Assembly: GCA_026395055.1 (NCBI GenBank)
Contig: JAPLZK010000002.1
Location: forward strand, 56,940-120,939
Direction of reading: 5' to 3'
Length of the DNA stretch: 64,000 bases
Source of the DNA: Candidatus Uhrbacteria bacterium
Lineage (GTDB): Bacteria; Patescibacteriota; Patescibacteriia; UBA9934; GWF2-40-263
This document shows positions 1-10,859 of this stretch, piece after piece (position 1 is the first letter of the stretch; each line of letters begins with the position of its first letter). The notes beneath the pieces are model-generated. The model was not told where the DNA came from and made no database searches. It was given only the letters and a program-made list of their open reading frames with translations. Both the position numbers and the translations under genes were made by a program.

Positions 1-33
1 ATCTGGATCCATCATCGAGGTTTCATCATCTTC

Positions 34-816
34 ATGTTCGGCGCGTTCCTTTTTTGCGCCTCAATCGTCCTTTTTTGCACGCACGGCGACAAGGTGCGTA
101 AGGCAGAAGATTACTGTGGTTGCTACGACTACGATCATGCGGAGGTGGAATGGTTTGGTGATGGCGTCACGTGCATCGGCAAGCGGACGTACGAAGAAGA
201 TCGCGCGCCGCTTTTCTGGGGCGGTGGCGATCGTCGTCACTCATTCAAACTCGATCCGAAGATTCGTACATCGCTCGAACAAGCGCGTGAGGATCATCGT
301 CGTGAAGTAAAGGACGCGATGAAGCGGGTAGAGCTCGAGCATATTCTGTGGACGCCGCTGTGGGTAATCATCGACACGAAGCTCGTGAACTGTGTGCCGT
401 CTCGGTTTAACCGCGATGGGACAACCGCCGAGCTCTCGTGTATGCAAGAGATCGACAAGCATATGGACTGCGACAACTTCACACCGGAATTCGAACCAGT
501 TTCGTCGGACTTCGGGTGCGACATGTACTTTCGGGCAAAGGCCTACGCGAGAGCTGGTGGTGTGAAGTTCAATGCGTCGACGGGACATATTGTTCCGACG
601 TTGGAGCAGGAGTTCCGGGAAGACTGTGTCATCCTTGAACTTACGAACAAAGGCATCCCGCTTCGTCGCATGTGCAAAATGACAACCGACAAACAAGAGG
701 GGACCGTGACTTCCTGCTCGGTTCGTCTTGAAGATAACTTCGAAGTGCATGCCGCGTACGACGTCCCATGCATCGACTTCGACAAAGCGCGAAAAGCACA
801 TCCGGCCAAGTCGTAG
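34..816 (+). CDS. hypothetical secreted Cys-rich protein (first gene of the cassette array)
   Basis: 260-aa ORF; N-terminal hydrophobic signal-like segment MFGAFLFCASIVLFCTHG; many Cys; followed by degenerate hairpin/CTTTTCCTGAG module. Confidence 0.4.
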   Translation: MFGAFLFCASIVLFCTHGDKVRKAEDYCGCYDYDHAEVEWFGDGVTCIGKRTYEEDRAPLFWGGGDRRHSFKLDPKIRTSLEQAREDHRREVKDAMKRVELEHILWTPLWVIIDTKLVNCVPSRFNRDGTTAELSCMQEIDKHMDCDNFTPEFEPVSSDFGCDMYFRAKAYARAGGVKFNASTGHIVPTLEQEFREDCVILELTNKGIPLRRMCKMTTDKQEGTVTSCSVRLEDNFEVHAAYDVPCIDFDKARKAHPAKS

Positions 817-941
817 TCAATTCGACAACGTTCCTTTTCAAACTTGTTTGATACGACTCGGAACTCCGAATCGCATCGAACCTTTTCCTGAGCTATCGAT
901 AAGGTATCGAGCTCTCAGGTTGAGATACTTGAATCAAAGAG

Positions 942-1277
942 GTGAACATGGAGTTTATCATCGATACACTCATGAAGATCATGATTGGTGCGTTCGTGAT
1001 TGGAACGTTCACGACGCTCATGTTCTTGTTCAGTTACGGTTCGTTCAAACACAAACTCATTCTAGTCATGATTGTCCTCTACGGGATGTACTTCGAGCAA
1101 TTTCTTTCGATTATGAGTATGACAAGTTGCATTCTCCTTTTTCACCATCTTTCCGAGATCCCACTTCTTGAAAGGAAAATACGCAGATTGCCTGAGCGAG
1201 GAGAAGAGATACCAGGGTTGCCGGAACCGCATCCGCTCGAACTCATCTTTACGGTGGGGGTAGATCGGATCGCGTGA
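942..1277 (+). CDS. hypothetical small membrane protein
   Basis: 111-aa ORF with two or three hydrophobic helices; AGAGGTG SD-like sequence upstream. Confidence 0.35.
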   Translation: MNMEFIIDTLMKIMIGAFVIGTFTTLMFLFSYGSFKHKLILVMIVLYGMYFEQFLSIMSMTSCILLFHHLSEIPLLERKIRRLPERGEEIPGLPEPHPLELIFTVGVDRIA

Positions 1278-1396
1278 GGAATGACCCATTGATTCGTAAA
1301 CGAACTTTTTTCTCGACGAGAAATATTTCTCGTCGCTTTTCCAGAGATCGCAAGCGAGTGCTTGTAGGATCTGAGAAAATTTCAATGGAGGTGTGT

Positions 1397-1897
1397 ATGT
1401 TTCGTAAATTGGTTTTTCTATCCGTGTGTTTTCTTGTTGTGTCATGTCGTCAGGCTGAATTGCCGGTACCCATGGTCAAGCAGAAAAGTTCTGTGAAAGA
1501 AATGCCTCCAAAAGTTTCGGCTGAACAAACGTACTTGTGTGATGAAACTTACACGATCGATTTTGCCAAATCGAAAAGCACAAATGTGAGCGATATGTAT
1601 GCGTGTCAGACTTCGATGGGCACAAGATTGCTTCCGGCTCGATACGGTGCGGCAGAAGTCTTGTTTACGCCAATTGCGCCATCTGGAACTCGATTCACGT
1701 TTCAGATTTTGACTCATGGCACAAATGCTATTGCTGTCATGGTGCACGGCAAACAAACATCGGTTCACGAAAACTTCCTTACCGGATCTTGTGGAGTATT
1801 TTCTACGAGTGGAGGAGTTGTCGGAAGCGATTACGTCGTTCTCGATTCGACGGTAACCACTGATAAGGTGAGCGTTAGGATTACTTGTGCTCTTTAG
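1397..1897 (+). CDS. putative lipoprotein
   Basis: GGAGGTG SD 4 nt before ATG; MFRKLVFLSVCFLVVSC signal with lipobox-like VVSC; stop followed by hairpin + CTTTTCCAGAGA. Confidence 0.4.
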   Translation: MFRKLVFLSVCFLVVSCRQAELPVPMVKQKSSVKEMPPKVSAEQTYLCDETYTIDFAKSKSTNVSDMYACQTSMGTRLLPARYGAAEVLFTPIAPSGTRFTFQILTHGTNAIAVMVHGKQTSVHENFLTGSCGVFSTSGGVVGSDYVVLDSTVTTDKVSVRITCAL

Positions 1898-1992
1898 GCA
1901 TCCGCTTTCTCGGCGATGATTCTCATCGCCGCTTTTCCAGAGACTCCCATCAACAGGTGATGGGGTGATCTGCGAAAGATAAGGAGGAAGAT
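1898..1992 (+). promoter_or_regulatory. cassette-array intergenic module A
   Basis: hairpin GGCGATGATTCTCATCGCC (1912-1930), CTTTTCCAGAGA (1932-1943), hairpin CCCATCA..TGATGGG, GATCTGCGAAAGATAAGGAGG, ATG 1993. Confidence 0.5.
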
Positions 1993-2400
1993 ATGCGAAC
2001 GTTTCGATTGAAGTGGAAGAAGGGCGATGCGGAAACTGTGACGGGTCTGTTTCTCTCGGATGCGTTGAGCAATGCCGGTTACGGTCGAGGCGCGACGGAC
2101 GAACTCGAGACGTATCAACAAGTGATTTATCTCGCCGTCTTCGATCCGAATTCCCGGATCACGCAGATCGAGGAATTTTCGGAAGGGGCTGACAAGAAGA
2201 TGAACTTCGAAGTCATCGTCGGCGCAACACGCGTTGGACGAAGTGTTCAACTCACGTTCGACAATGGCACCGTGAAACGCATCAATGTCGGCGAGCACGG
2301 GCAGTTGATTTCGGGAAACGGATCGGGCGATTGCGTTTGCGCAGCGTTCGATTTGTATCGCGAAGCGGAAGAATGGGAAGAGGAGCAGATGGCGGAGTAG
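1993..2400 (+). CDS. hypothetical protein (cassette gene)
   Basis: 135-aa ORF preceded by AAGGAGG SD inside conserved intergenic module. Confidence 0.45.
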   Translation: MRTFRLKWKKGDAETVTGLFLSDALSNAGYGRGATDELETYQQVIYLAVFDPNSRITQIEEFSEGADKKMNFEVIVGATRVGRSVQLTFDNGTVKRINVGEHGQLISGNGSGDCVCAAFDLYREAEEWEEEQMAE

Positions 2401-2456
2401 TGAGACGCATCTCGGAAATACCAAGGATGTAAATTATCGCCAACAGATAAGGAGAC

Positions 2457-2750
2457 ATGATGCTGATCTTTTCACCAAGATGGTGGCAGAGGCGAAAGGG
2501 GGAGCGAATGCTCGCTCGTATTATGGAAGAAGTGGAAAAGTGCAAGTGCACAAAGAGTTTGATCGAAAGACAACTCGCGTTTGCACGTACGCACGGAATC
2601 GAACAGCAGATCAAGGAATGCGGAGAGATGCTTGCATTTCTGGAAATACAACTGCGCTTCAAACAGTTGGAGTATTTGGTTGTGGTGCAAGAACAGCACG
2701 CGAAAGCAACAAAGGGAATTTCCAGCTTGATAAACGCGAATCTCAAATGA
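2457..2750 (+). CDS. hypothetical protein
   Basis: 97-aa ORF in array; no recognisable domain. Confidence 0.3.
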   Translation: MMLIFSPRWWQRRKGERMLARIMEEVEKCKCTKSLIERQLAFARTHGIEQQIKECGEMLAFLEIQLRFKQLEYLVVVQEQHAKATKGISSLINANLK

Positions 2751-2899
2751 TCGATCTGCCTTGAGAATATCTAAAAATATTTCCCAGGGCCTTTTCCAGA
2801 GATCCCGATCGAAGTGATCGAGCGATCTGAGAAAGCGACCACCCCCTAACCCACTCCTTGTGAAGGATGGGGGAGATGGGTTCATACATAGAGGTGAAC
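2751..2899 (+). promoter_or_regulatory. cassette-array intergenic module B (degenerate)
   Basis: CCTTTTCCAGAGA at 2790-2802 preceded by short CCCAGGG palindrome; second hairpin CCCACTCCTT..AAGGATGGG. Confidence 0.4.
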
Positions 2900-3202
2900 A
2901 TGTTCGATCTGTTCGATCGGTGTTTGATTGCCGGCATCGTGCTTGCGGTTGGGGGGCTCGTCTTTCTGCGCAAGCGCGAACGGTCGGAAGAAATTGCGGA
3001 ACAGAATGCAGAGCCGGTGATCGAAGTGGATCATCGCCCGAGCGCTACCATCATCGAATTTCCGATGCATCGCCGGCCAATGTACGATTCGCTCCCTGGC
3101 TTTGGCTGGGAGGAAGCGGAGGTCATTGATCTTGCGGAGTGGAAATTGCTGCGTCTGCAACGGATGTGGGCTCTGCAAAATTCGCGTGAAGCGATTCTGT
3201 AG
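2900..3202 (+). CDS. hypothetical membrane-anchored protein
   Basis: AGAGGTG SD then ATG; N-terminal TM helix CLIAGIVLAVGGLVFL; terminator hairpin + box downstream. Confidence 0.35.
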   Translation: MFDLFDRCLIAGIVLAVGGLVFLRKRERSEEIAEQNAEPVIEVDHRPSATIIEFPMHRRPMYDSLPGFGWEEAEVIDLAEWKLLRLQRMWALQNSREAIL

Positions 3203-3320
3203 TTTGTTCTTTTTCTCGGCGAGAATCTTCTCGCCCCTTTTCCAGAGAACATGAGCGCTGGGCTTGTGAACTCTGACATAGGTACGAACAGACGTTCGGA
3301 GTTTCCGGACCAGGAGAAAG
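3203..3320 (+). promoter_or_regulatory. cassette-array intergenic module C
   Basis: hairpin GGCGAGAATCTTCTCGCC (3218-3235), CTTTTCCAGAGA 3237-3248. Confidence 0.5.
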
Positions 3321-3644
3321 ATGCGCGACATTTTCTGTACGTTGTTTCTGGTGGTGCTCGCCGCGTTCCTTGTGCTCTCGTCGCACGGACAGCAGTTCAC
3401 GATGACCATCGGTTCGCACACGCTCAGCATGGGCGTCCAGCACTCGACGGCCAAGCTCGAAGCGCGCGTGGCGGAACTCGAAGCGGCGCAAGCGGCACAG
3501 GTGGTCGAAGAAGATGGTGAAGAAGAAGGGGAAGACGTTGTGGGCGAAAATGAAAACGTCTGCGATGTGGAAACCACCTGCTGTGCATCGAGTGAAGTGC
3601 AGATGACTTGCGCGTTCAACGAGGACGCGGAAGAAGAAGGTTAA
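3321..3644 (+). CDS. hypothetical secreted acidic protein
   Basis: signal peptide MRDIFCTLFLVVLAAFLVLSSHG; Glu/Asp-rich C-terminus. Confidence 0.4.
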   Translation: MRDIFCTLFLVVLAAFLVLSSHGQQFTMTIGSHTLSMGVQHSTAKLEARVAELEAAQAAQVVEEDGEEEGEDVVGENENVCDVETTCCASSEVQMTCAFNEDAEEEG

Positions 3645-3689
3645 TCAAAAAACGCCCGCGAGAAATCTCGTCGGCAAGAAGGAGAAAAG

Positions 3690-4022
3690 ATGAATTGGAT
3701 CAAGAAGAATCTGTGTTGGGCTACGTGGATCGCAATGTACGCAGCATTCCTGTTCACTTACATCGTACCGGTTGTCGGCTTTGCTTTGCAGATCATGATT
3801 TGCGTCGCGTGTTTCGCTCTGGAAAAGGTTTGGATCGATCATTCGGTTCAGGATCCACTTTCGTTCTTCCGGCGTTGCCCCATGTTCAGTGCGGCATTCC
3901 CCAGTTTTTTCATCGGGATCGTGGAAGTGAAATTCCACACGCCCGGTCTGCTGACACGCATGCTTTTTTTGCTCTTCTGCCTGTGGGTGGACAAAAAGGC
4001 GTTGAGTCAGAAGGCTGCGTAA
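3690..4022 (+). CDS. hypothetical membrane protein
   Basis: 110 aa, three hydrophobic segments; AGGAGAAAAG SD upstream. Confidence 0.4.
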   Translation: MNWIKKNLCWATWIAMYAAFLFTYIVPVVGFALQIMICVACFALEKVWIDHSVQDPLSFFRRCPMFSAAFPSFFIGIVEVKFHTPGLLTRMLFLLFCLWVDKKALSQKAA

Positions 4023-4120
4023 CGTTCTTTCCTGTTCGAGCACATGCTCGAACCTTTTCCAGAGACTCTCACCGAACGGTTCGGTGGGGTGCTCTGCGGG
4101 AGTACAACAAGGAGAACATT
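4023..4120 (+). promoter_or_regulatory. cassette-array intergenic module D
   Basis: hairpin GTTCGAGCACATGCTCGAAC (4034-4053), CTTTTCCAGAGA 4054-4065, hairpin CACCGAACGGTTCGGTG, GGGGTGCTCTG, AAGGAG. Confidence 0.5.
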
Positions 4121-4465
4121 GTGCGACAAGTGGAACAATCTAATGGTGTTCGTTATTTCGCGTGCGTGCTCGGCGTGCTCGCGACGCTCATTCTCATGGG
4201 TTGCTGCGGTGGCAACAGTGGAAATGCTGCGTCGGCTCCGCTTGCGTACAAGGCGACGTCGTCGTGTTTCACGCCGGCGAATTTCCGGGAGTCCTCGATG
4301 CAGAATACTGATTACAGCCTGGAGCTGTGCGAATATTCCGTTGAGAAGGATGAACACTATGCTCGTACTTGTTTTGCGAGTCGTAACCCGAATTGGCAAA
4401 GTGCCACGACGTTCTCGGTCCCGTGTGCGGACTTTGACGCGATCAAGAAGATCACCGGAAATTAA
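4121..4465 (+). CDS. putative lipoprotein (GTG start)
   Basis: module D supplies AAGGAGAACATT-GTG; N-terminus VRQVEQSNGVRYFACVLGVLATLILMGCCGG has lipobox LMGC. Confidence 0.35.
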   Translation: MRQVEQSNGVRYFACVLGVLATLILMGCCGGNSGNAASAPLAYKATSSCFTPANFRESSMQNTDYSLELCEYSVEKDEHYARTCFASRNPNWQSATTFSVPCADFDAIKKITGN

Positions 4466-4501
4466 ACGCCCGCCCGAGGTTGGGTCGGCACGGAGGTTTG
4501 C

Positions 4502-4843
4502 GTGAAGAATTTTGGAGCGTTCATTGGTGCAATCGGCGGCGCATCCGCGGCGGGTCTTTGGCATCATTTCAATCCGGATACAGGATTTGGTGTGCTCTTG
4601 CTCTGTTCGATGGTCGGCGGCGGCGTCGTGGCGATCATGTGGCTTGCCCTTGTGTATCACCTGAATATTCCACAGGTTCCAAAGCCGAGTCGTGCAGAGT
4701 TGTTCGAAGCAACGCGTGTGGAACTCGAACGTCAGATTGCGGAAGCGACGGAAGCGTGCGGGTCTGAACATGCGGATGCTGTGTACGACTTGCGCAAGGA
4801 GCTCAACGCGTTCAATTACCTGAGCGATCGCCTGAGCTTTTAG
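4502..4843 (+). CDS. hypothetical membrane protein
   Basis: 113 aa, two TM helices; followed by hairpin GCCCGA..TCGGGC + CTTTTCCAGAGA. Confidence 0.4.
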   Translation: MKNFGAFIGAIGGASAAGLWHHFNPDTGFGVLLLCSMVGGGVVAIMWLALVYHLNIPQVPKPSRAELFEATRVELERQIAEATEACGSEHADAVYDLRKELNAFNYLSDRLSF

Positions 4844-4944
4844 TTCTTTTTCTCGCCCGAGTTTCTTCGGGCCTTTTCCAGAGATCCTCACCGAACGGTT
4901 CGGTGGGGTGCTCTGAGGAAGTTTTACAACAGGAGAACATCCGA
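4844..4944 (+). promoter_or_regulatory. cassette-array intergenic module E
   Basis: hairpin GCCCGAGTTTCTTCGGGC (4855-4872), CTTTTCCAGAGA 4873-4884, same CACCGAACGGTTCGGTGGGGTGCTCTG leader as module D. Confidence 0.5.
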
Positions 4945-5526
4945 ATGGATTTCAAGTATACGTTCGACGGTCAGTTGACGGGTTGGAGATGGAAACTCGT
5001 TCTCATCGCGATCTTCGCCATCTTTGTGTACGAGGCGACGGGACAATCTCCTGCGCTTGCGTTCTTGGCGGTCGTGATTCCGGGAGTCATCCTCTTCTCG
5101 CGCATCAGCTTCAAAGCGAAGAGTGATCTGGGTGTGATCGATATCCGTCCGGACACGCCGACGAAATTTCGTTTGCATCTTCCGGAGGAATTGAGCGTAT
5201 CGATTCGGGCATCTGCATTCGTGGAGCCAGATCCGCGTCAAGATCGTATCGACGAACTCGAATCCGAATTGGAGGACGCGGACAGCGAACTCGAAGATGC
5301 GGATTCGGAATGGGAGGATGCAAAAAGCGAACTCGAAGATGCAGAATCGGAAGTGCGAGATGCACAAGATGAACTGCGTCGGGTCGAGGAAGAGCGCGGT
5401 TCACATTTGGTAAATGTTTCCGAATACGCATCGAAGCGTGCGGAAGCGCAGGCAAAGAAAGACAGAATCGAAGCGGAGCTTGCGAAAGCACGCGAGCCGA
5501 ATGCCGAGAATACGACCATCACCTGA
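4945..5526 (+). CDS. hypothetical membrane protein with acidic tandem-repeat coiled coil
   Basis: SD CAGGAGAACATCCGA-ATG; TM helix then repeats ELESELEDADSELEDADSEWEDAKSELEDAESE. Confidence 0.4.
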   Translation: MDFKYTFDGQLTGWRWKLVLIAIFAIFVYEATGQSPALAFLAVVIPGVILFSRISFKAKSDLGVIDIRPDTPTKFRLHLPEELSVSIRASAFVEPDPRQDRIDELESELEDADSELEDADSEWEDAKSELEDAESEVRDAQDELRRVEEERGSHLVNVSEYASKRAEAQAKKDRIEAELAKAREPNAENTTIT

Positions 5527-5592
5527 TCTTGTTGATCGGGAGTGATGTACAACCAGCGTTTCTCAACAATCCCAATCGGGATGGAGGCAGTG

Positions 5593-6081
5593 TTCATGAT
5601 TCCATTGCTCGTTTATCTCGTCGTCACGTTCTTCTTGAACCACATCGTCGCGCAAGTGAATCTGTCTCGCGTGGCGGAGCATCCGGTTCGGAAATCAGGT
5701 TTCTTGCTCGATGTTGCGACGTTCTGTGCGGTTCTTCTGCGCGTGCCGTTCTACCTGTTCGGCATCGTGGTCTACAGCCTGTGCTGTATCGGCACAATCA
5801 TCGCGGCAGCCGCGGATTTCATTCCGGAATACACCATGACACTTTGGATCTACGTGCTTGCCGATAACCTCGGCTACGCGTCCTATGCGTTTCGTGCGCT
5901 TCTCGTGAAGGAATTCCATTTCCTGCAGAGCTTTGCAGCAAGTTCGTGGGCCATCACCTACTACGATTTTCATCTCACCTACGATACACGAGTGTTCTCG
6001 TTTCTCGTGTCGCCGCAAAAGGGATATCGTTCGCACAGTATTGCGCCCGAGCTTGTTGCTCGGCGCAAAATCAACACCTAG
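5593..6081 (+). CDS. hypothetical polytopic membrane protein
   Basis: four or more hydrophobic helices; start uncertain (5542/5593/5608). Confidence 0.35.
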   Translation, partial: FMIPLLVYLVVTFFLNHIVAQVNLSRVAEHPVRKSGFLLDVATFCAVLLRVPFYLFGIVVYSLCCIGTIIAAAADFIPEYTMTLWIYVLADNLGYASYAFRALLVKEFHFLQSFAASSWAITYYDFHLTYDTRVFSFLVSPQKGYRSHSIAPELVARRKINT

Positions 6082-6097
6082 ACATAGGGAGTCTGTC

Positions 6098-6229
6098 ATG
6101 CAAGTGATGTATTTTCTCGGTAACGCAATGAATGTGGTGATCGTCGGTGGTCTCTTGGTTTCCGCCGTCGTCATTCCACGTGATCTACTGCGTGGCGCGT
6201 TCAGTCGCAGCGCGCAGCGCAAAGCGTAA
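6098..6229 (+). CDS. hypothetical small membrane protein (43 aa)
   Basis: AGGGAG SD 7 nt upstream of ATG; single TM helix; 3' end shares AATTCGACAACGTTC with the gene ending at 816. Confidence 0.3.
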   Translation: MQVMYFLGNAMNVVIVGGLLVSAVVIPRDLLRGAFSRSAQRKA

Positions 6230-6330
6230 TTCGACAACGTTCTTTCTCTTGGCGAGAATCTTCTCGCCTCTTTTCCAGAGACTCACATCGATGGATGATG
6301 TGGTGATCTGCGAAAGATAAGGAGGTTCCG
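6230..6330 (+). promoter_or_regulatory. cassette-array intergenic module F
   Basis: hairpin GGCGAGAATCTTCTCGCC (6251-6268), CTTTTCCAGAGA 6270-6281, hairpin CACATCGATGGATGATGTG, GATCTGCGAAAGATAAGGAGG as in module A. Confidence 0.5.
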
Positions 6331-6954
6331 ATGCGGGATTTGGAAGCGATGTATCTTGAACACTTGGCGTTCGTGCGTGCGAATCTTGCGCTGCTCGGCG
6401 TTGAGGATCCGGAAGTGATGATTGCGTTTCGTGTAACGGATCAACGGCATAAACAACCGGACCGAATGATTACGTTCGATCTTTCTCTCTCAGAAGCACT
6501 ACATCACGAAGTGTGTTGTGCATGGCGATCATTTTTCGCCCCGCGATGGCCGGAGGAAACGACTTACAAGCCTGAAGTGCAGATGAATGGGGAATTGTTC
6601 GGGTATCTTGATTCGTCAGGATTCCGTTACAAAGATCCGCCTTCGCTCAGGCTTGCCCTTGCGTGGATGATTGTTGCCAGGTGGGAAAATCCACCGTTTC
6701 TGTTTGATCTTGATAAGGCTGTGAGTGTTCTTGCTGCCGTAGTTGCCGAAGGTGTGACCGAAGAGATCTTTGTGATGAAGTGGCTTCCAGCCCTGAAACA
6801 CGTTTTCGCGTTGCAACCCGGGATGACTGTTCGGGATGGTTATCGATCGTCCGAGGTGTATCTCTGGCGTGTAGCAACAAAAGATGTGTACGGCGAATCA
6901 CACCCTGGGTATCCAGGACGTGTGGAGCCGTGTTATCTGTTGCGTGTTCTTTGA
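6331..6954 (+). CDS. hypothetical protein (cassette gene)
   Basis: 207 aa; same leader (GATCTGCGAAAGATAAGGAGG) as the unrelated gene at 1993. Confidence 0.45.
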   Translation: MRDLEAMYLEHLAFVRANLALLGVEDPEVMIAFRVTDQRHKQPDRMITFDLSLSEALHHEVCCAWRSFFAPRWPEETTYKPEVQMNGELFGYLDSSGFRYKDPPSLRLALAWMIVARWENPPFLFDLDKAVSVLAAVVAEGVTEEIFVMKWLPALKHVFALQPGMTVRDGYRSSEVYLWRVATKDVYGESHPGYPGRVEPCYLLRVL

Positions 6955-7073
6955 AGCGTTTGGCGAGAATCTTCTCGCCTCTTTTCCAGAGACAACAAAC
7001 AGGTTGTGGTCTCTCAGAAGGTTACAGACAGCATCAGTTGCATGCGACCATCCGTCGTTTGCTTGGAGGAAGT
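6955..7073 (+). promoter_or_regulatory. cassette-array intergenic module G
   Basis: hairpin GGCGAGAATCTTCTCGCC (6962-6979), CTTTTCCAGAGA 6981-6992. Confidence 0.5.
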
Positions 7074-7367
7074 ATGGCGTTACCGATCATTGGGTATCTC
7101 GCGCGTTCCGATTGGGAAGATCCCGAGGACAGCGTCGTTGTCGCGATCGAAGATTGCGCGGAACCACAAGTGTTCCGTGTGCTTGCCGCAGAATGGTGTG
7201 CGAAAGAAAACACTGTTCACGTTGTGACCAGGTGGATGCGCGGAAAAGCGCCGATCAAAGTTCGCCTTGGCGAATCCGCCGTTGACTCGATGGCGGAATG
7301 TAGTCTCAAGTTCTGTGCGACGGAAGCTCTGGCCATCGAATGGCTGGGGACACAGTCGCAGTCGTAG
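7074..7367 (+). CDS. hypothetical protein
   Basis: GGAGGAAGT-ATG; 97 aa; followed by GGCGAGAATCTTCTCGCC hairpin + box. Confidence 0.3.
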   Translation: MALPIIGYLARSDWEDPEDSVVVAIEDCAEPQVFRVLAAEWCAKENTVHVVTRWMRGKAPIKVRLGESAVDSMAECSLKFCATEALAIEWLGTQSQS

Positions 7368-7484
7368 GTTGTTTATCGTTCCTTTCTTGGCGAGAATCTT
7401 CTCGCCCCTTTTTCAGAGATCAAGAGTGAATGGCATTTGTGGTTTCTGTCAGAAGTGTTTCGTTGTTTTGTACAGGAGGGAAAG
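7368..7484 (+). promoter_or_regulatory. cassette-array intergenic module H
   Basis: hairpin GGCGAGAATCTTCTCGCC (7389-7406), variant box CTTTTTCAGAGA 7408-7419. Confidence 0.45.
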
Positions 7485-7649
7485 ATGGCACTGTTGGCTT
7501 TCATTGCAGGATGTTTCGCGGGTTCGATCATGTTTGTCGTCGCATGCGGTCTCCTTGGATACCGGATGATGCGCTCGGTCATGAAGGGGCAGAAGCCTCG
7601 TCTCGATCGTCCCGACGTGAAATATACGTTTCCGAACAAAAAGGAATAA
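7485..7649 (+). CDS. hypothetical small membrane protein (54 aa)
   Basis: ACAGGAGGGAAAG-ATG; one TM helix. Confidence 0.3.
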   Translation: MALLAFIAGCFAGSIMFVVACGLLGYRMMRSVMKGQKPRLDRPDVKYTFPNKKE

Positions 7650-7651
7650 TC

Positions 7652-8020
7652 ATGTACGCACGAAATCAAAACGTGGCGGCATGGGTCGCTATCGTAAACG
7701 CAAACGGGTATCAAGAAGTTTGTCCCGTTTCGAAAACGCAAAATGTGTACGCGCAATTCTCTCCGGTGATCCTTCGCTGGAGTCGGGAAGGGGAAATCAT
7801 TCTCGAATTCGTGAACAAGCCGCGAGCGCGACCGTTCGACCCTGACGATGATCGCAAGAATGAAATCGTTCGCGTAAACATCGGCAACGGCGTGATCACG
7901 AAGCGTGACTCGGATTGGAATCCGATTCTGCGGTGTGTTCCATGCGCATCGCATGCGGAAGCAATCATCGAGGCCAAGCGATTGATGGAAGTCATGATGG
8001 ACTATCAGGCGGCGGCGTAA
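7652..8020 (+). CDS. hypothetical protein
   Basis: 122 aa; last gene of array; followed by intrinsic terminator 8032-8063. Confidence 0.35.
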   Translation: MYARNQNVAAWVAIVNANGYQEVCPVSKTQNVYAQFSPVILRWSREGEIILEFVNKPRARPFDPDDDRKNEIVRVNIGNGVITKRDSDWNPILRCVPCASHAEAIIEAKRLMEVMMDYQAAA

Positions 8021-8031
8021 GGTTTTTTCTT

Positions 8032-8063
8032 GACCAGACTCGAATGAGTTTGGTCTTTTTTTT
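8032..8063 (+). terminator. intrinsic terminator ending the cassette array
   Basis: GACCAGACT-cgaatg-AGTTTGGTC followed by T8. Confidence 0.6.
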
Positions 8064-8071
8064 GATGATGG

Positions 8072-8115
8072 GCTCGAAACCTCCCCCAACCCCTCCTTTG
8101 CAGGAGGGGCTTTGG
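8072..8115. repeat. left 44-bp inverted repeat flanking the DUF559 gene
   Basis: GCTCGAAACCTCCCCCAACCCCTCCTTTGCAGGAGGGGCTTTGG; exact reverse complement at 8536-8579; contains internal hairpin CCCCTCCT/AGGAGGGG. Confidence 0.8.
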
Positions 8116-8146
8116 GCGTAGATAAAAACACTCCGCGTGGGAGTGT

Positions 8147-8530
8147 TTAAATGTATTGGGTTGGTCGTGCTGGTTGTATTGCGAGAATTTGTTTGATTCT
8201 GCTAATGACAGAGTTTGTGTTGTTTATTACTTCGTCGTTTGTAAATCGAATCACTTTGATTTCGTATCCTTCAATTATTCGTGACCGTTCCTCGTCATGT
8301 GTTTTTCCTTCACTGGTAAAATGCTGCGAACCATCAAGTTCGATTGCCAATCGTTTTTCGGAGCAATAGAAATCTACAACGAAAGAATCAATACCATGTT
8401 GTCGACGAAACTTAAAGCCTAACTTCTTGTTTTTAAGATGCTCCCATAAATAATTCTCCGCACGCGTCGCTTCGTTACGAAGCACGCGCCTCACATCCTT
8501 TTGATAGAACCGATTAAAAAGTTCATGCAT
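8147..8530 (-). CDS. DUF559 / Vsr-like endonuclease-domain protein
   Basis: motifs LGFKFRRQH, VDFYCSEKRLAIELDGSQH, IKVIRFTNDEV typical of DUF559; start MHELFNRF at 8530 chosen because the longer ORF reads through the inverted repeat. Confidence 0.6.
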   Translation of the reverse strand: MHELFNRFYQKDVRRVLRNEATRAENYLWEHLKNKKLGFKFRRQHGIDSFVVDFYCSEKRLAIELDGSQHFTSEGKTHDEERSRIIEGYEIKVIRFTNDEVINNTNSVISRIKQILAIQPARPTQYI

Positions 8531-8535
8531 AAAGT

Positions 8536-8579
8536 CCAAAGCCCCTCCTGCAAAGGAGGGGTTGGGGGAGGTTTCGAGC
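8536..8579. repeat. right 44-bp inverted repeat flanking the DUF559 gene
   Basis: 44/44 reverse-complement match to 8072-8115. Confidence 0.8.
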
Positions 8580-8594
8580 TTGTCCTCCAAGTCA

Positions 8595-10859
8595 TTATCG
8601 TCTCGCCGTCGCGCCACTCGCAACTTCTTCTAACTTCACGGAGAGCAAATTGCTGACTCCGTCGTCTCCCATGGTCACTCCATACAAGACATCTGCTTTT
8701 TCCATGGTTGCGCGGTTGTGTGTCACAACAATGAACTGAGAATTTTTTGATAGGTCATCAAGAATGGAGGCAAAGCGCATCGTGTTTGATTCATCGAGCG
8801 CGGCATCAACCTCATCGAGCACCACGAATGGGGCTGGGTTTACGGCCATGATAGCGGAGAGGAGGGCAATAGATGTAAGCGCACGTTCTCCTCCAGAGAG
8901 AAGATTCAAGGATTTCAATTTCTTTCCCGGAGGTGTTGCTTGAATATCGATTCCGACCACGCCGTCATCGTACGCGGCAATGCGTTCACGGATGGCATCT
9001 GTCTTATCGCGTTCCGCTTCACCTGTATCTTCGAACACGCGTTCTGGTGTGACTTCTGTTTCTTCATCTGCTTTCAAATCTTCTTTTGAGAGCTTGATGA
9101 GGGAACACGATCCACCGTTAAACAAAATTTTGAAATACTTTTCAAACTCTTTGTTGATGAGTGCGAAGACCTTCTTCGACTGGGTTGCAATGTCTTCATC
9201 AAGTTCGATCACGATTTTTTCGGTTGCGTTGATCGCTTTTTTCAAATCTTGAATTTGCACATCCAGAAACTCGAATCGCTTTTTTGTATCTTCATACTCA
9301 ACAACGATTTCTGGATCGATTCCACCAATCAGTTCAAGTTTGTAACGCAAGCGTTGGATTTCTGGGTAGATGGCGTTTGCATCCACGGCGTATTCTTCCC
9401 GTTTTGTGCGAACAGCAACTGCCGATTCTTTCATCGCTTCATCCATTTCACGATTCAAACTTTTCTGACGCTCTTCGAATCGTGCGGATTCGATGTTGAT
9501 GGAGTTGCGTTGGTTCTCGAGTAAATGAATTTGTGTTTGCTTCTCACGCAACTCCCGTTGCATGTCGATCAACTCTGTGCGAACTTGTTTTTCTTTTTGT
9601 GCGTACGAGTCAATCTCACGTTCTTGTTCAACAAGTTCTGCTTTGATGCGTTGCTCGTCGAGTGCGAGCGCGGCTTTCTTTTCGAGAAGCACAGGATCCG
9701 GTTTGATGTCTTCTGGATTTGGTTTGCGCAAACGCTTGTTCAATCCAACAACTTTGTCGAGAACAGAATCGATCGCAAGATGAAGGGCATCAATGTCTTT
9801 GAGGGATTTTAAATTTTTGAGGAGAACATCGAGTCCATCAATCTCTTCCACAATTTTCAAAAGGGGGAGTGGGGCCCAGTTTGATTGCGCACGCACTTTT
9901 GTGAGCTCGATTTCTTTTTCGATTTGAAATTGTGCTTGGCGACACGTGTCACGCTCACGTTGTTTTTCGCGGTATACTTTTTGTAATGCGGTGAGTCCTG
10001 CATCTTCTCCTGTTTCAGAAGTCTCGACCGCTTTTGTTCGTGATTCGATGACTTCAAGTTCAGATCGCTTCTCGAGAATGCGACCATCGATCTCACCAAG
10101 CTGCGCTTTCACGCCCGCGAGTTCGTCTACAATATTCCACCAGAGTGTTCCATAGTAAGATGTTTCCATTCCACGCAATTCACGTTCCACTTCTTCGCGT
10201 TCCGAGAGTCTTGAAACCTGACGCTTGAGGGATCGTAAGCGCGGTTCGATTTCTTGCACGAGCATTTCTACGTCTGTGAGATTTTCGAGTGTGCGTTTTA
10301 ATTTCAAAATCGCTTCATGGCGTTTGAGTTGAAGAGGCTTTACTCCGGTCGCGTCATCAAAAAAACTTTTGCGCTCTTCAGGAGTTGAAACCAGAATGTG
10401 ATCGATCATGCCTTGTCCGATGACCGAGTAGGATCGTTGACCAACGTTTGCTTGTGCGAGGAGAAGTTGGATGTCCGCAAGGCGCGCCGTGCCATCGTTC
10501 AAAAGATATTCTGAGTTACCATCGCGGTAGAGTCGGCGTGTGATGGTGACTTCGGAATAATCGATGGGCATCATTTTGTCTTCGTTGTTGAGCGTAATAG
10601 AAACTTCCGCGAATCCAGAACGGCCGCGACCTTCCGAGCCAGAAAAAATCACGTCCTCGGATTTCTTTCCGCGAAGAAGCTTCATGCTCTGCTCACCCAA
10701 AACCCAACGGATGGCATCCGCAAGATTGGACTTTCCTGATCCGTTTGGTCCCACAATGGAAGTGAGTGGATAGCGATCTACCGCGGGCGGAAGAAACGAA
10801 AGGGAAGTTTTTTTGGCAAAGGTTTTGAATCCTTGAACGGAGAGTTTCGACAGGTACAT
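8595..10859 (-). CDS. smc: SMC-family chromosome segregation ATPase (short form, 754 aa)
   Basis: N-terminal MYLSKLSVQGFKTFA, Walker A GPNGSGKSN, long coiled coil, C-terminal LSGGERALTSIALL signature and DE Walker B. Confidence 0.7.
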   Translation of the reverse strand: MYLSKLSVQGFKTFAKKTSLSFLPPAVDRYPLTSIVGPNGSGKSNLADAIRWVLGEQSMKLLRGKKSEDVIFSGSEGRGRSGFAEVSITLNNEDKMMPIDYSEVTITRRLYRDGNSEYLLNDGTARLADIQLLLAQANVGQRSYSVIGQGMIDHILVSTPEERKSFFDDATGVKPLQLKRHEAILKLKRTLENLTDVEMLVQEIEPRLRSLKRQVSRLSEREEVERELRGMETSYYGTLWWNIVDELAGVKAQLGEIDGRILEKRSELEVIESRTKAVETSETGEDAGLTALQKVYREKQRERDTCRQAQFQIEKEIELTKVRAQSNWAPLPLLKIVEEIDGLDVLLKNLKSLKDIDALHLAIDSVLDKVVGLNKRLRKPNPEDIKPDPVLLEKKAALALDEQRIKAELVEQEREIDSYAQKEKQVRTELIDMQRELREKQTQIHLLENQRNSINIESARFEERQKSLNREMDEAMKESAVAVRTKREEYAVDANAIYPEIQRLRYKLELIGGIDPEIVVEYEDTKKRFEFLDVQIQDLKKAINATEKIVIELDEDIATQSKKVFALINKEFEKYFKILFNGGSCSLIKLSKEDLKADEETEVTPERVFEDTGEAERDKTDAIRERIAAYDDGVVGIDIQATPPGKKLKSLNLLSGGERALTSIALLSAIMAVNPAPFVVLDEVDAALDESNTMRFASILDDLSKNSQFIVVTHNRATMEKADVLYGVTMGDDGVSNLLSVKLEEVASGATARR

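Follow-up and report, generated by a model that had tools for sequence, protein, structure and literature searches.

A DUF559 nuclease gene in Uhrbacteria lies between inverted copies of a BoxC/PIT/TM-type repeat, a pairing found across phyla

The 64,000-nt stretch of a Candidatus Uhrbacteria genome analyzed here (contig JAPLZK010000002.1, positions 56,940 to 120,939; termed the window) carries, just beyond the 3' end of smc, a small gene of the DUF559 family that stands between two perfect inverted repeats. We find that these repeats belong to a known class of potential triplex-forming elements and that the pairing of gene and repeat extends well beyond this genome. The two repeats, or arms, are exact reverse complements of one another at all 44 of 44 nt (8072-8115, whose + strand reads GCTCGAAACCTCCCCCAACCCCTCCTTTGCAGGAGGGGCTTTGG, against 8536-8579). 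With up to three mismatches allowed, the 44-nt sequence occurs only in these two copies within the window, where 100 shuffles gave an expectation of 0, and a repeat finder lengthened the inverted pair to 55 nt at 91%. Along the minus strand, smc is followed after 15 nt by the right arm, after a further 5 nt by the DUF559 gene, then by a hairpin, the left arm and, 8 nt on, the terminator of a convergent gene (Table 1). The 420 nt between the arms hold one minus-strand DUF559 open reading frame (ORF) and one terminator-like hairpin, which lies inside the repeat pair, shares bases with the DUF559 stop codon, and was not picked up by a consensus terminator scan. An earlier inspection of the letters by themselves (the sequence-only reading) had described exact 44-bp inverted repeats that enclose the DUF559 gene and its immediate flanks only and that sit between a terminator and smc; each of these points was borne out, with the terminator-like hairpin as an addition. 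The convergent gene's terminator, which is shared with a relative (L205), forms the outer edge of the insertion site. A single weak sigma-70-like site was predicted upstream of the right arm, where 1.1 would be expected by chance.

Each arm consists of a pyrimidine (Y) stem, a loop, a complementary purine (R) stem, a 3-nt loop, and a second R stem that is the mirror image of the first. In both arms the stem pair is CCCCTCCT-GCAA-AGGAGGGG, 8 bp long and fully complementary, and the third block, TTG followed by GGGGAGGT, allows eight of eight purine-motif triplets, the accepted kinds being G.G:C, A.A:T, and T.A:T. The hairpin within each repeat had already been noticed in the sequence-only reading and is confirmed as the 8-bp CCCCTCCT/AGGAGGGG stem, while the third, mirror-symmetric purine block had been overlooked. 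With this block included, the two arms prove to be copies, in inverted orientation, of a BoxC/PIT/TM-type repeat, a G/C-rich unit of ~31 nt that can potentially fold into an intrastrand triplex. Repeats of this class have been described in succession as BoxC, adjoining E. coli envM/fabI (Bergler, 1992), as PIT elements (Hoyne and Maher, 2000), and as TM or TMECO motifs (Holder et al., 2015; PMC4666352), the last with the consensus CCCTCNCCC-N3-6-GGGNGAGGG-N3-GGGNGAGGG (PMC4666352). The window arms, with stems CCCCTCCT/AGGAGGGG/GGGGAGGT, do not match the TMECO consensus; because the TMECO design is kept and the stems are different, the window motif is a member of the wider G/C-rich class and not of the E. 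coli sequence type. TM loci are rearrangement hot spots and are unusually variable in E. coli, and Holder et al. reported no shared function of the flanking genes and no mobility gene or activity near TM sites (PMC4666352).

Searches at the RNA level, made on the window and on 18 related loci, found no Rfam family that reached its gathering score over the arms, and a match to Chlorobi-1 (21.9 bits against a cut-off of 50), which covers one hairpin and a neighboring A-run, was rejected as chance. The RNA fold of the paired arms around the ORF is very stable (z = -9). Despite this score, a single long RNA stem around the ORF was set aside and a DNA-level reading preferred, because the gene's terminator-like hairpin lies inside the pair and because purine-motif triplexes do not form in RNA.

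The 127-amino-acid product of the enclosed gene matches Pfam family PF04480 (DUF559) with E=2.7e-31 over profile positions 3-108 of 109, and NCBI lists an identical protein from a Candidatus Uhrbacteria metagenome-assembled genome (MAG). Residues D53, E64, D66, H70, and D79 are present in the window protein, are invariant across 40 homologs, and line up with the catalytic region of I-Bth0305I (PMC3239194), the prototype EDxHD homing endonuclease, which shares common ancestry with Vsr (PMC3239194). A profile of the family matched the DUF559 protein structure PDB 3HRL at E=2.8e-31 and the catalytic domain of I-Bth0305I (PDB 3R3P) at E=4.9e-5, and the matches in PHROGs are phage homing-endonuclease families. 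Following a conserved, helix-rich N-terminus of ~35 amino acids, the protein is a bare nuclease domain; searches of Pfam, NCBIfam, and PDB gave DUF559/Vsr-like matches only, and no transposase-like or HUH/Y1 domain. Membership in a defense system was considered and rejected, the PADLOC matches (to DpdF and to a methyl-directed restriction enzyme) being weak and partial only. Taken together, these matches predict that the window protein is a DUF559 / Vsr-like nuclease of the EDxHD-type PD-(D/E)XK fold. The family is very large, comprising 49,472 clusters at 50% identity with E<=1e-3 and 23,790 with E<=1e-10.

The sequence-only reading was also right to suspect that a longer predicted ORF is artefactual: this ORF, of 158 amino acids and with a TTG start, runs through the right arm, and we regard it as an artefact because the NCBI record and the three closest homologs (which begin MHELFNR, MHEVFNR, and MYELFNR) open at the same Met, placing the true start at ATG 8530. 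Many family proteins in the databases bear spurious N- or C-terminal extensions that are translated repeat motifs. Separately, five database proteins (P0241, P0243-P0245, and P0251) contain two or three tandem DUF559 stretches within one protein, and these may be read-through fusions of tandem genes separated by repeats.

To examine how general the pairing is, we used a sample of 80 metagenomic loci encoding relatives of the window protein, in which 71 DUF559 genes had both flanks, and defined a strict hairpin as a pyrimidine-arm/purine-arm hairpin with a perfect stem of at least 7. Such a hairpin was found within 150 nt of 60 of the 71 DUF559 genes, on both sides in 29 of them, compared to only 2 of 63 controls, which were other genes of at least 150 amino acids on the same contigs (p=6e-24, Fisher's exact test), and strict hairpins occur elsewhere in the loci at a background density of 0.115 per kb. 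A mirror third strand with at most one mismatch accompanies 105 of the 153 hairpins within 250 nt of these genes (69%), as against 6 of 179 with random flanks. The third strand is perfect in 81 of the 153, among which 38 distinct R-stem/third-strand pairs co-vary as mirror images; of these 81 perfect motifs, 57 have a 9-nt stem and 59 a 3-nt second loop. Significant flank-to-flank repeats are present in 36 of 66 loci, 19 direct (perfect over up to 180 nt) and 23 inverted (perfect over up to 52 nt), and in many cases a repeat touches or runs into the start or stop of the ORF. Across the 80 homologous loci, motifs whose third strand is directed toward the gene somewhat outnumber those directed away. 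These findings show that the association of small DUF559 genes with BoxC/PIT/TM-class repeats is both specific and general across phyla. DUF559 genes were ~14-fold enriched among predicted inversion targets in a survey of inverted repeats, where the enrichment passed without comment (PMC9881135), and the repeats found here probably account for it. We found no paper linking DUF559/COG2852 to these repeats, and a description beyond the searched literature is possible; both the repeat class and the protein family had been described before, and the link between the two appears to be new.

The closest DUF559 homologs, at 61-69% amino acid identity, carry the same repeat-gene-repeat arrangement in three different gene contexts. 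At 69% identity (protein P0002, locus L211), the gene upstream of the cassette is again the 3' end of smc; at 66% (P0003, L002) it is an unrelated gene of 582 amino acids without a BLAST match to SMC, so that a simple syntenic ortholog was rejected for this cassette; and at 61% (P0004, L001) it is a membrane-protein gene. In the window and in all three of these loci, the bracket consists of third strand and hairpin upstream and hairpin and third strand downstream, with the third strands facing outward. The arms resemble each other over 31 nt at 97% in L001 and over 39 nt at 77% in L002; within one cassette they keep their stems and differ mainly in the loops, and the downstream arm of L002 has a different stem that is still self-complementary. 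The bases outside the arms were compared for a target-site duplication, as the sequence-only reading had proposed, and none was seen in the window, L001, L002, or L211.

Comparison of the site itself among relatives, which had been proposed alongside, revealed that it is polymorphic (empty, gene-less doublet, or occupied) over SMC identities of 79-99%. The smc 3' regions were fetched from relatives and ranked by SMC identity to the window. At 99% (L207) the same arm is present and the contig ends within its hairpin; at 95% (L202/L203) the site is empty, the stop codon being followed by an ordinary terminator; at 93% (L208) an identical arm lies 2 nt past the stop, at the contig end; and at 91% one relative (L204) is empty and another (L205/L206, GCA_001791305.1) carries a gene-less doublet followed by the window's convergent terminator. 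At 89% (L209) a different C-rich hairpin is found at the contig end, and at 79% (L210) the site is empty. The doublet of L205/L206 is composed of a type B motif, a 34-nt spacer with a small hairpin, and a type A motif, and its third strands face outward. Among close relatives this one site is occupied, degraded, or empty, as the life cycle of a selfish insert would predict.

Several further observations concern this site. In L202, L204, and L210 the native smc terminator likewise forms a hairpin with a pyrimidine arm and a purine arm, such as TTCCTCTC-ACGTT-GAGAGGAA, and the cassette occupies the exact place of this native terminator. Four independent assemblies (L207, L208, L209, and L211) stop inside or exactly at the end of the smc-side repeat, which suggests that in those samples the motif has several copies or is difficult to sequence.

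We also looked for other copies of the repeat, as the sequence-only reading had suggested. In the window this yielded one diverged solo copy, at 29314-29347, which is intergenic and lies beyond the terminator of a purA-like gene. Across other genomes, a scan for a core of 25 specified bases (CCCCTCCT-N4-6-AGGAGGGG-NN-GGGGGAGGT), with one genome per species, found exact matches at no fewer than 119 loci (at least 119) in many phyla. The matches listed include Planctomycetota, Nitrospirota, Armatimonadota, Abditibacteriota, Bacteroidota, Cyanobacteria, Deltaproteobacteria, Verrucomicrobiota, several groups of the candidate phyla radiation (CPR), and others, and some of the MAGs among them hold at least six core loci each. 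Motif copies stand singly, pair up into inverted doublets that combine two stem types, or form arrays, the basic dispersed unit being the singlet of ~31 nt and not the doublet; E. coli doublets likewise pair a type A motif with a type B motif (Holder et al.; PMC4666352). In 6 of the at least 119 core loci listed, a DUF559 gene stands directly beside the motif (within ~4 kb), namely in a cyanobacterium, Moraniibacteriota, Nitrospiraceae, Nitrospinae, Raineya, and L089. Other cargo genes were sought between the motif pairs of the loci listed, and DUF559 is the only gene that recurs there. The solo copy differs from the arms as a diverged variant within these 64 kb, and the TMECO copy adjacent to E. 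coli ycjD is of the standard variant.

The gene ycjD (b1289), which lies between sapF and fabI, is the DUF559 gene of E. coli K-12 (L212; Table 1). On its 3' side, a degenerate motif covers the stop codon and is followed by a duplicated fragment of the gene's own 3' end and by another degenerate motif, and a canonical CCCTCGCCCCTCTGGGGAGAGGGTTAGGGTGAGGGG is located ~167 nt downstream of ycjD. This canonical copy is TMECO no. 9 in the supplementary table of Holder et al. (fabI 164 nt, ycjD 167 nt; PMC4666352), and the report of the fabI (envM) sequence is the work cited for the first description of BoxC (PMC4666352). E. coli K-12 has 23 TMECO copies, and the median E. coli genome has 17 repeat places. 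As ycjD is accessory, being present in 3378 of 5426 complete E. coli genomes (62%), repeat places were compared in an evenly spaced sample of 58 genomes with ycjD status inferred from the adjacent locus. Genomes with the ycjD-side locus (n = 37) have 13-30 repeat places (median 18), compared to 1-21 (median 8) in those without it (n = 21), and all sampled genomes with four or fewer repeat places lack the ycjD-side locus (p=3e-8, Mann-Whitney test, uncorrected for phylogeny). In the ycjD-lacking strain TCM3e1 (L213, NZ_CP066806.1, 2146-2624), an island with TetR and RND (resistance-nodulation-division) efflux genes replaces the sapF-ycjD side, and its boundary lies ~35 nt from the K-12 TMECO position, consistent with triplex motifs marking the borders of variable regions.

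Table 1. Coordinates of the repeat-gene-repeat unit, its neighbors, and further copies discussed in the text (window positions unless an accession is given).
Feature	Position	Strand	Details
Intrinsic terminator of convergent gene (7430-8020)	8032..8063	+	Ends 8 nt before left arm
Left arm, 3' of DUF559 gene	8072..8115	- (motif reading strand)	Right-arm motif again
Left arm, parts on + strand	8079-8086, 8090-8097, 8102-8109		GCTCGAA, ACCTCCCC, CAA, CCCCTCCT, TTGC, AGGAGGGG, CTTTGG
Terminator-like hairpin of DUF559 gene	8126..8148	-	AAACACTCC-CACGC-GGAGTGTTT then TTATCT; sequence inspection, inverted-repeat listing
DUF559 gene, 127 amino acids + stop	8147..8530	-	ATG 8530, stop 8147-8149
Right arm, 5' of DUF559 gene	8536..8579	+ (motif reading strand)	Exact reverse complement of 8072-8115
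Right arm, Y stem	8542-8549		CCAAAG, then CCCCTCCT, then loop GCAA
Right arm, R stem	8554-8561		AGGAGGGG, then loop TTG
Right arm, mirror R stem	8565-8572		GGGGAGGT, then TTCGAGC
Weak sigma-70-like promoter match	8594..8623	-	TTGCGA-18-GATAAT; smc 3' end, upstream of right arm
smc, 754 amino acids	8595..10859	-	Stop codon 15 nt before right arm
Solo diverged motif copy	29314..29347	+	CCCCCTCCTT-ATC-AAGGAGGGGG-CA-GGGGGTGGTC; third strand 9/10
E. coli K-12 ycjD region (L212)	NC_000913.3 1351039-1351830

Two further observations were made outside the unit. Window positions 1-8000 contain at least five copies of an intergenic unit of ~60 nt located between small ORFs (near 1306, 3207, 4029, 6240, 6951, and 7378), in which a terminator-like hairpin GGCGAGAATCTTCTCGCC is followed by CTTTTCCAGAGA, a second small hairpin, and TCTGCGAAAGATAAGGAGG. 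Two small ORFs of this array that were scanned (6331-6954 and 7430-8020) had no Pfam match, and the same unit is found in variable small-gene arrays downstream of smc in L202 and L204. Among SMC homologs, a Patescibacteria protein of 1220 amino acids (P0185) is an intein-containing SMC, as judged from its Pfam matches to intein-splicing and LAGLIDADG families.

On balance, we favor the interpretation that repeat, gene, and repeat form a compact selfish module whose nuclease acts on the repeat and which spreads by break-induced copying, a reading that we hold to be somewhat likelier true than false. In such a scheme, the Vsr/EDxHD-like nuclease would recognize the repeat, which would probably be single-stranded or in a non-B form, and would cut within or beside it; recombinational repair from another repeat-bearing locus would then copy repeats into the broken site, and a gene lying between the repeats would be copied along. 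The process would amount to homing into a dispersed repeat, functionally analogous to the system of repetitive extragenic palindromes and their associated tyrosine transposases (REP/RAYT). At the smc 3' site of close Uhrbacteria the module has been gained, degraded, and lost, and elsewhere it is found in other gene contexts. A wider claim is offered tentatively and may well prove wrong: that BoxC/PIT/TM repeats have in the small DUF559 nucleases the trans-acting partner missing so far, in a REP/RAYT-like system based on a Vsr/EDxHD PD-(D/E)XK nuclease and non-B DNA, which would extend over many bacterial phyla, E. coli ycjD included, and would cause both the spread of the repeats and the genome instability around them.

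Gene and repeat could instead share their locations passively, the repeats being fragile, recombination-prone places where an independent selfish or defense-type DUF559 gene lands or survives, or else accumulating around the gene. The unusual variability of TM loci in E. coli (PMC4666352), the island boundary ~35 nt from the ycjD-adjacent TMECO position, the great distance of most repeat copies from any DUF559 gene (6 of the at least 119 listed are nearby), and the heterogeneous arrangement around the gene would all suit this account, which we nevertheless think rather unlikely. A module copied through break repair is preferred to it because a hairpin is found near 85% of DUF559 genes compared to 3% of neighboring controls and because the unit stays intact across 61-69% protein identity and different contexts; also speaking against mere co-location are the status of DUF559 as the sole recurrent gene between repeat pairs among the loci listed, and the repeats that frequently border on the ORF's start or stop or extend into it. 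A classical cut-and-paste transposon, in which the arms are terminal inverted repeats recognized by DUF559 as the transposase and the gene-less doublets are miniature inverted-repeat transposable elements (MITEs), would explain the inverted terminal arms with outward third strands in the window, L001, L002, and L211, the gene-less doublet with outward third strands at the same site in L205, and the common occurrence of such doublets. We consider it improbable, and prefer break-induced copying to it because there is no target-site duplication at the four cassettes, the orientation is variable, and a 127-amino-acid bare nuclease domain includes nothing transposase-like; among the 80 homologs an inward-pointing third strand is commoner than an outward-pointing one and direct repeats match inverted ones in frequency, the dispersed unit is a singlet of ~31 nt, and solo copies showed no DUF559 coding remnants over 96 kb of repeat flanks. 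The sequence-only reading had proposed a compact selfish cassette or MITE-like carrier. Its selfish, mobile part is supported by the three gene contexts and the site polymorphism, while the MITE-like part is not supported, given that the arms are a widespread repeat class of variable orientation with neither target-site duplication nor coding remnants.

Very improbable, in our estimation, is a fixed structure acting in cis, whether by insulating against or terminating read-through from smc, by sequestering the ribosome-binding site, or by switching the gene on and off through RecA- or invertase-mediated flipping. A Shine-Dalgarno-like AGGAGG does lie in the 3' arm of the hairpin, upstream of the ATG, but it is at least 13 nt from the ATG here and 21-30 nt away in L211 and L002, a spacing too long and too variable, and Shine-Dalgarno sequestration was rejected accordingly. 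The perfect 44-bp inverted repeat could support inversion, and DUF559 is enriched among predicted inversion targets (PMC9881135); no recombinase was present among the ORFs read beside the cassette, whose neighbors were not systematically scanned for families. Repeats are present 3' of the gene as well, can be directly oriented, and number in the hundreds at places away from any DUF559 gene; close relatives differ in the state of the site, and PIT elements were found to lack promoter and terminator activity (PMC4666352). At the window locus alone, a regulatory or invertible-switch role is conceivable, and it would leave the general pattern unexplained.

Several points weigh against a nuclease-driven module as well. 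A strict hairpin is missing near about 15% of DUF559 genes, and the repeats flank the gene in varying orientations. The window holds three motif copies in all, with no sign of active amplification, and no DUF559 coding remnants were found beside solo repeats in 96 kb of repeat flanks. The small number of core loci with a nearby DUF559 gene is compatible with independence of the two, although a low share would be expected if the enzyme acts in trans. The difference in repeat counts among E. coli genomes is confounded by phylogeny, and its support for a tie between ycjD and the repeats is suggestive only. Triplex formation was seen in vitro, for TMECO only, and not in vivo, and the lack of activity of PIT elements counts here too (PMC4666352).

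If the proposal is true, two orphans explain each other: the DUF559 family, and the BoxC/PIT/TM repeats, which have been known since 1992, cross phyla, and are linked to instability, without a known function or route of spread. The pair would then constitute a second system of repeat plus domesticated nuclease, mechanistically distinct from REP/RAYT, and an example of a nuclease that targets non-B DNA. E. coli K-12, with ycjD and 23 TMECO copies, offers a direct test of the hypothesis. A consequence for annotation is that many DUF559 ORFs are wrongly extended through the repeats, where contigs also tend to break.

The arms share with known BoxC/PIT/TMECO repeats the order of C-rich stem, 3-6 nt loop, G-rich stem, loop of ~3 nt, and mirror G-rich stem, as well as an intergenic, conserved, and multi-copy occurrence as singlets and inverted type A/type B doublets with local genome variability. 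They differ in the stem, which is CCCCTCCT (8 nt) in the window and CCCTCNCCC (9 nt) in the enterobacterial consensus, and in having a partner gene: the literature gives none, whereas here two copies bracket a nuclease gene and the pairing is general. With YcjD (b1289) and the N. gonorrhoeae protein NGO0050 (PDB 3HRL, E=2.8e-31), the window protein shares the DUF559 family (PRK09767, 69 bits), and ycjD is likewise accessory and beside BoxC/TM motifs; however, the window protein is no equivalog (the NCBIfam cut-off for PRK09767 is 218 bits), and ycjD of K-12 has motifs on its 3' side only. EDxHD homing endonucleases such as I-Bth0305I (PMC3239194) have a homologous catalytic domain (E=4.9e-5 to 3R3P), and, as with free-standing homing endonucleases, the gene is gained, decays, and is lost at a site and would plausibly spread by break repair with co-conversion of its flanks. 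In contrast to I-Bth0305I, the window protein is without the N-terminal NUMOD/helix-turn-helix DNA-binding region, and its gene lies outside any intron or intein, the enzyme's presumed target being a dispersed repeat and not a single conserved site within a gene. The REP/RAYT system (TnpA-REP; Nunvar, 2010, PMC2817692; PMC8266576) resembles the window module in its single small nuclease-type gene flanked by a dispersed, structured, palindromic repeat, in intergenic singlets and inverted doublets (REPIN-like), and in the absence of target-site duplication. The window enzyme is nonetheless PD-(D/E)XK Vsr/EDxHD-like and not an HUH Y1 transposase, its repeat has a third mirror strand with triplex potential and a variable orientation around the gene, and the window system is known from sequence, with its activity predicted. 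Judged by analogy, the module would appear to have more in common with REP/RAYT or with a free-standing homing endonuclease than with a MITE and its autonomous parent.

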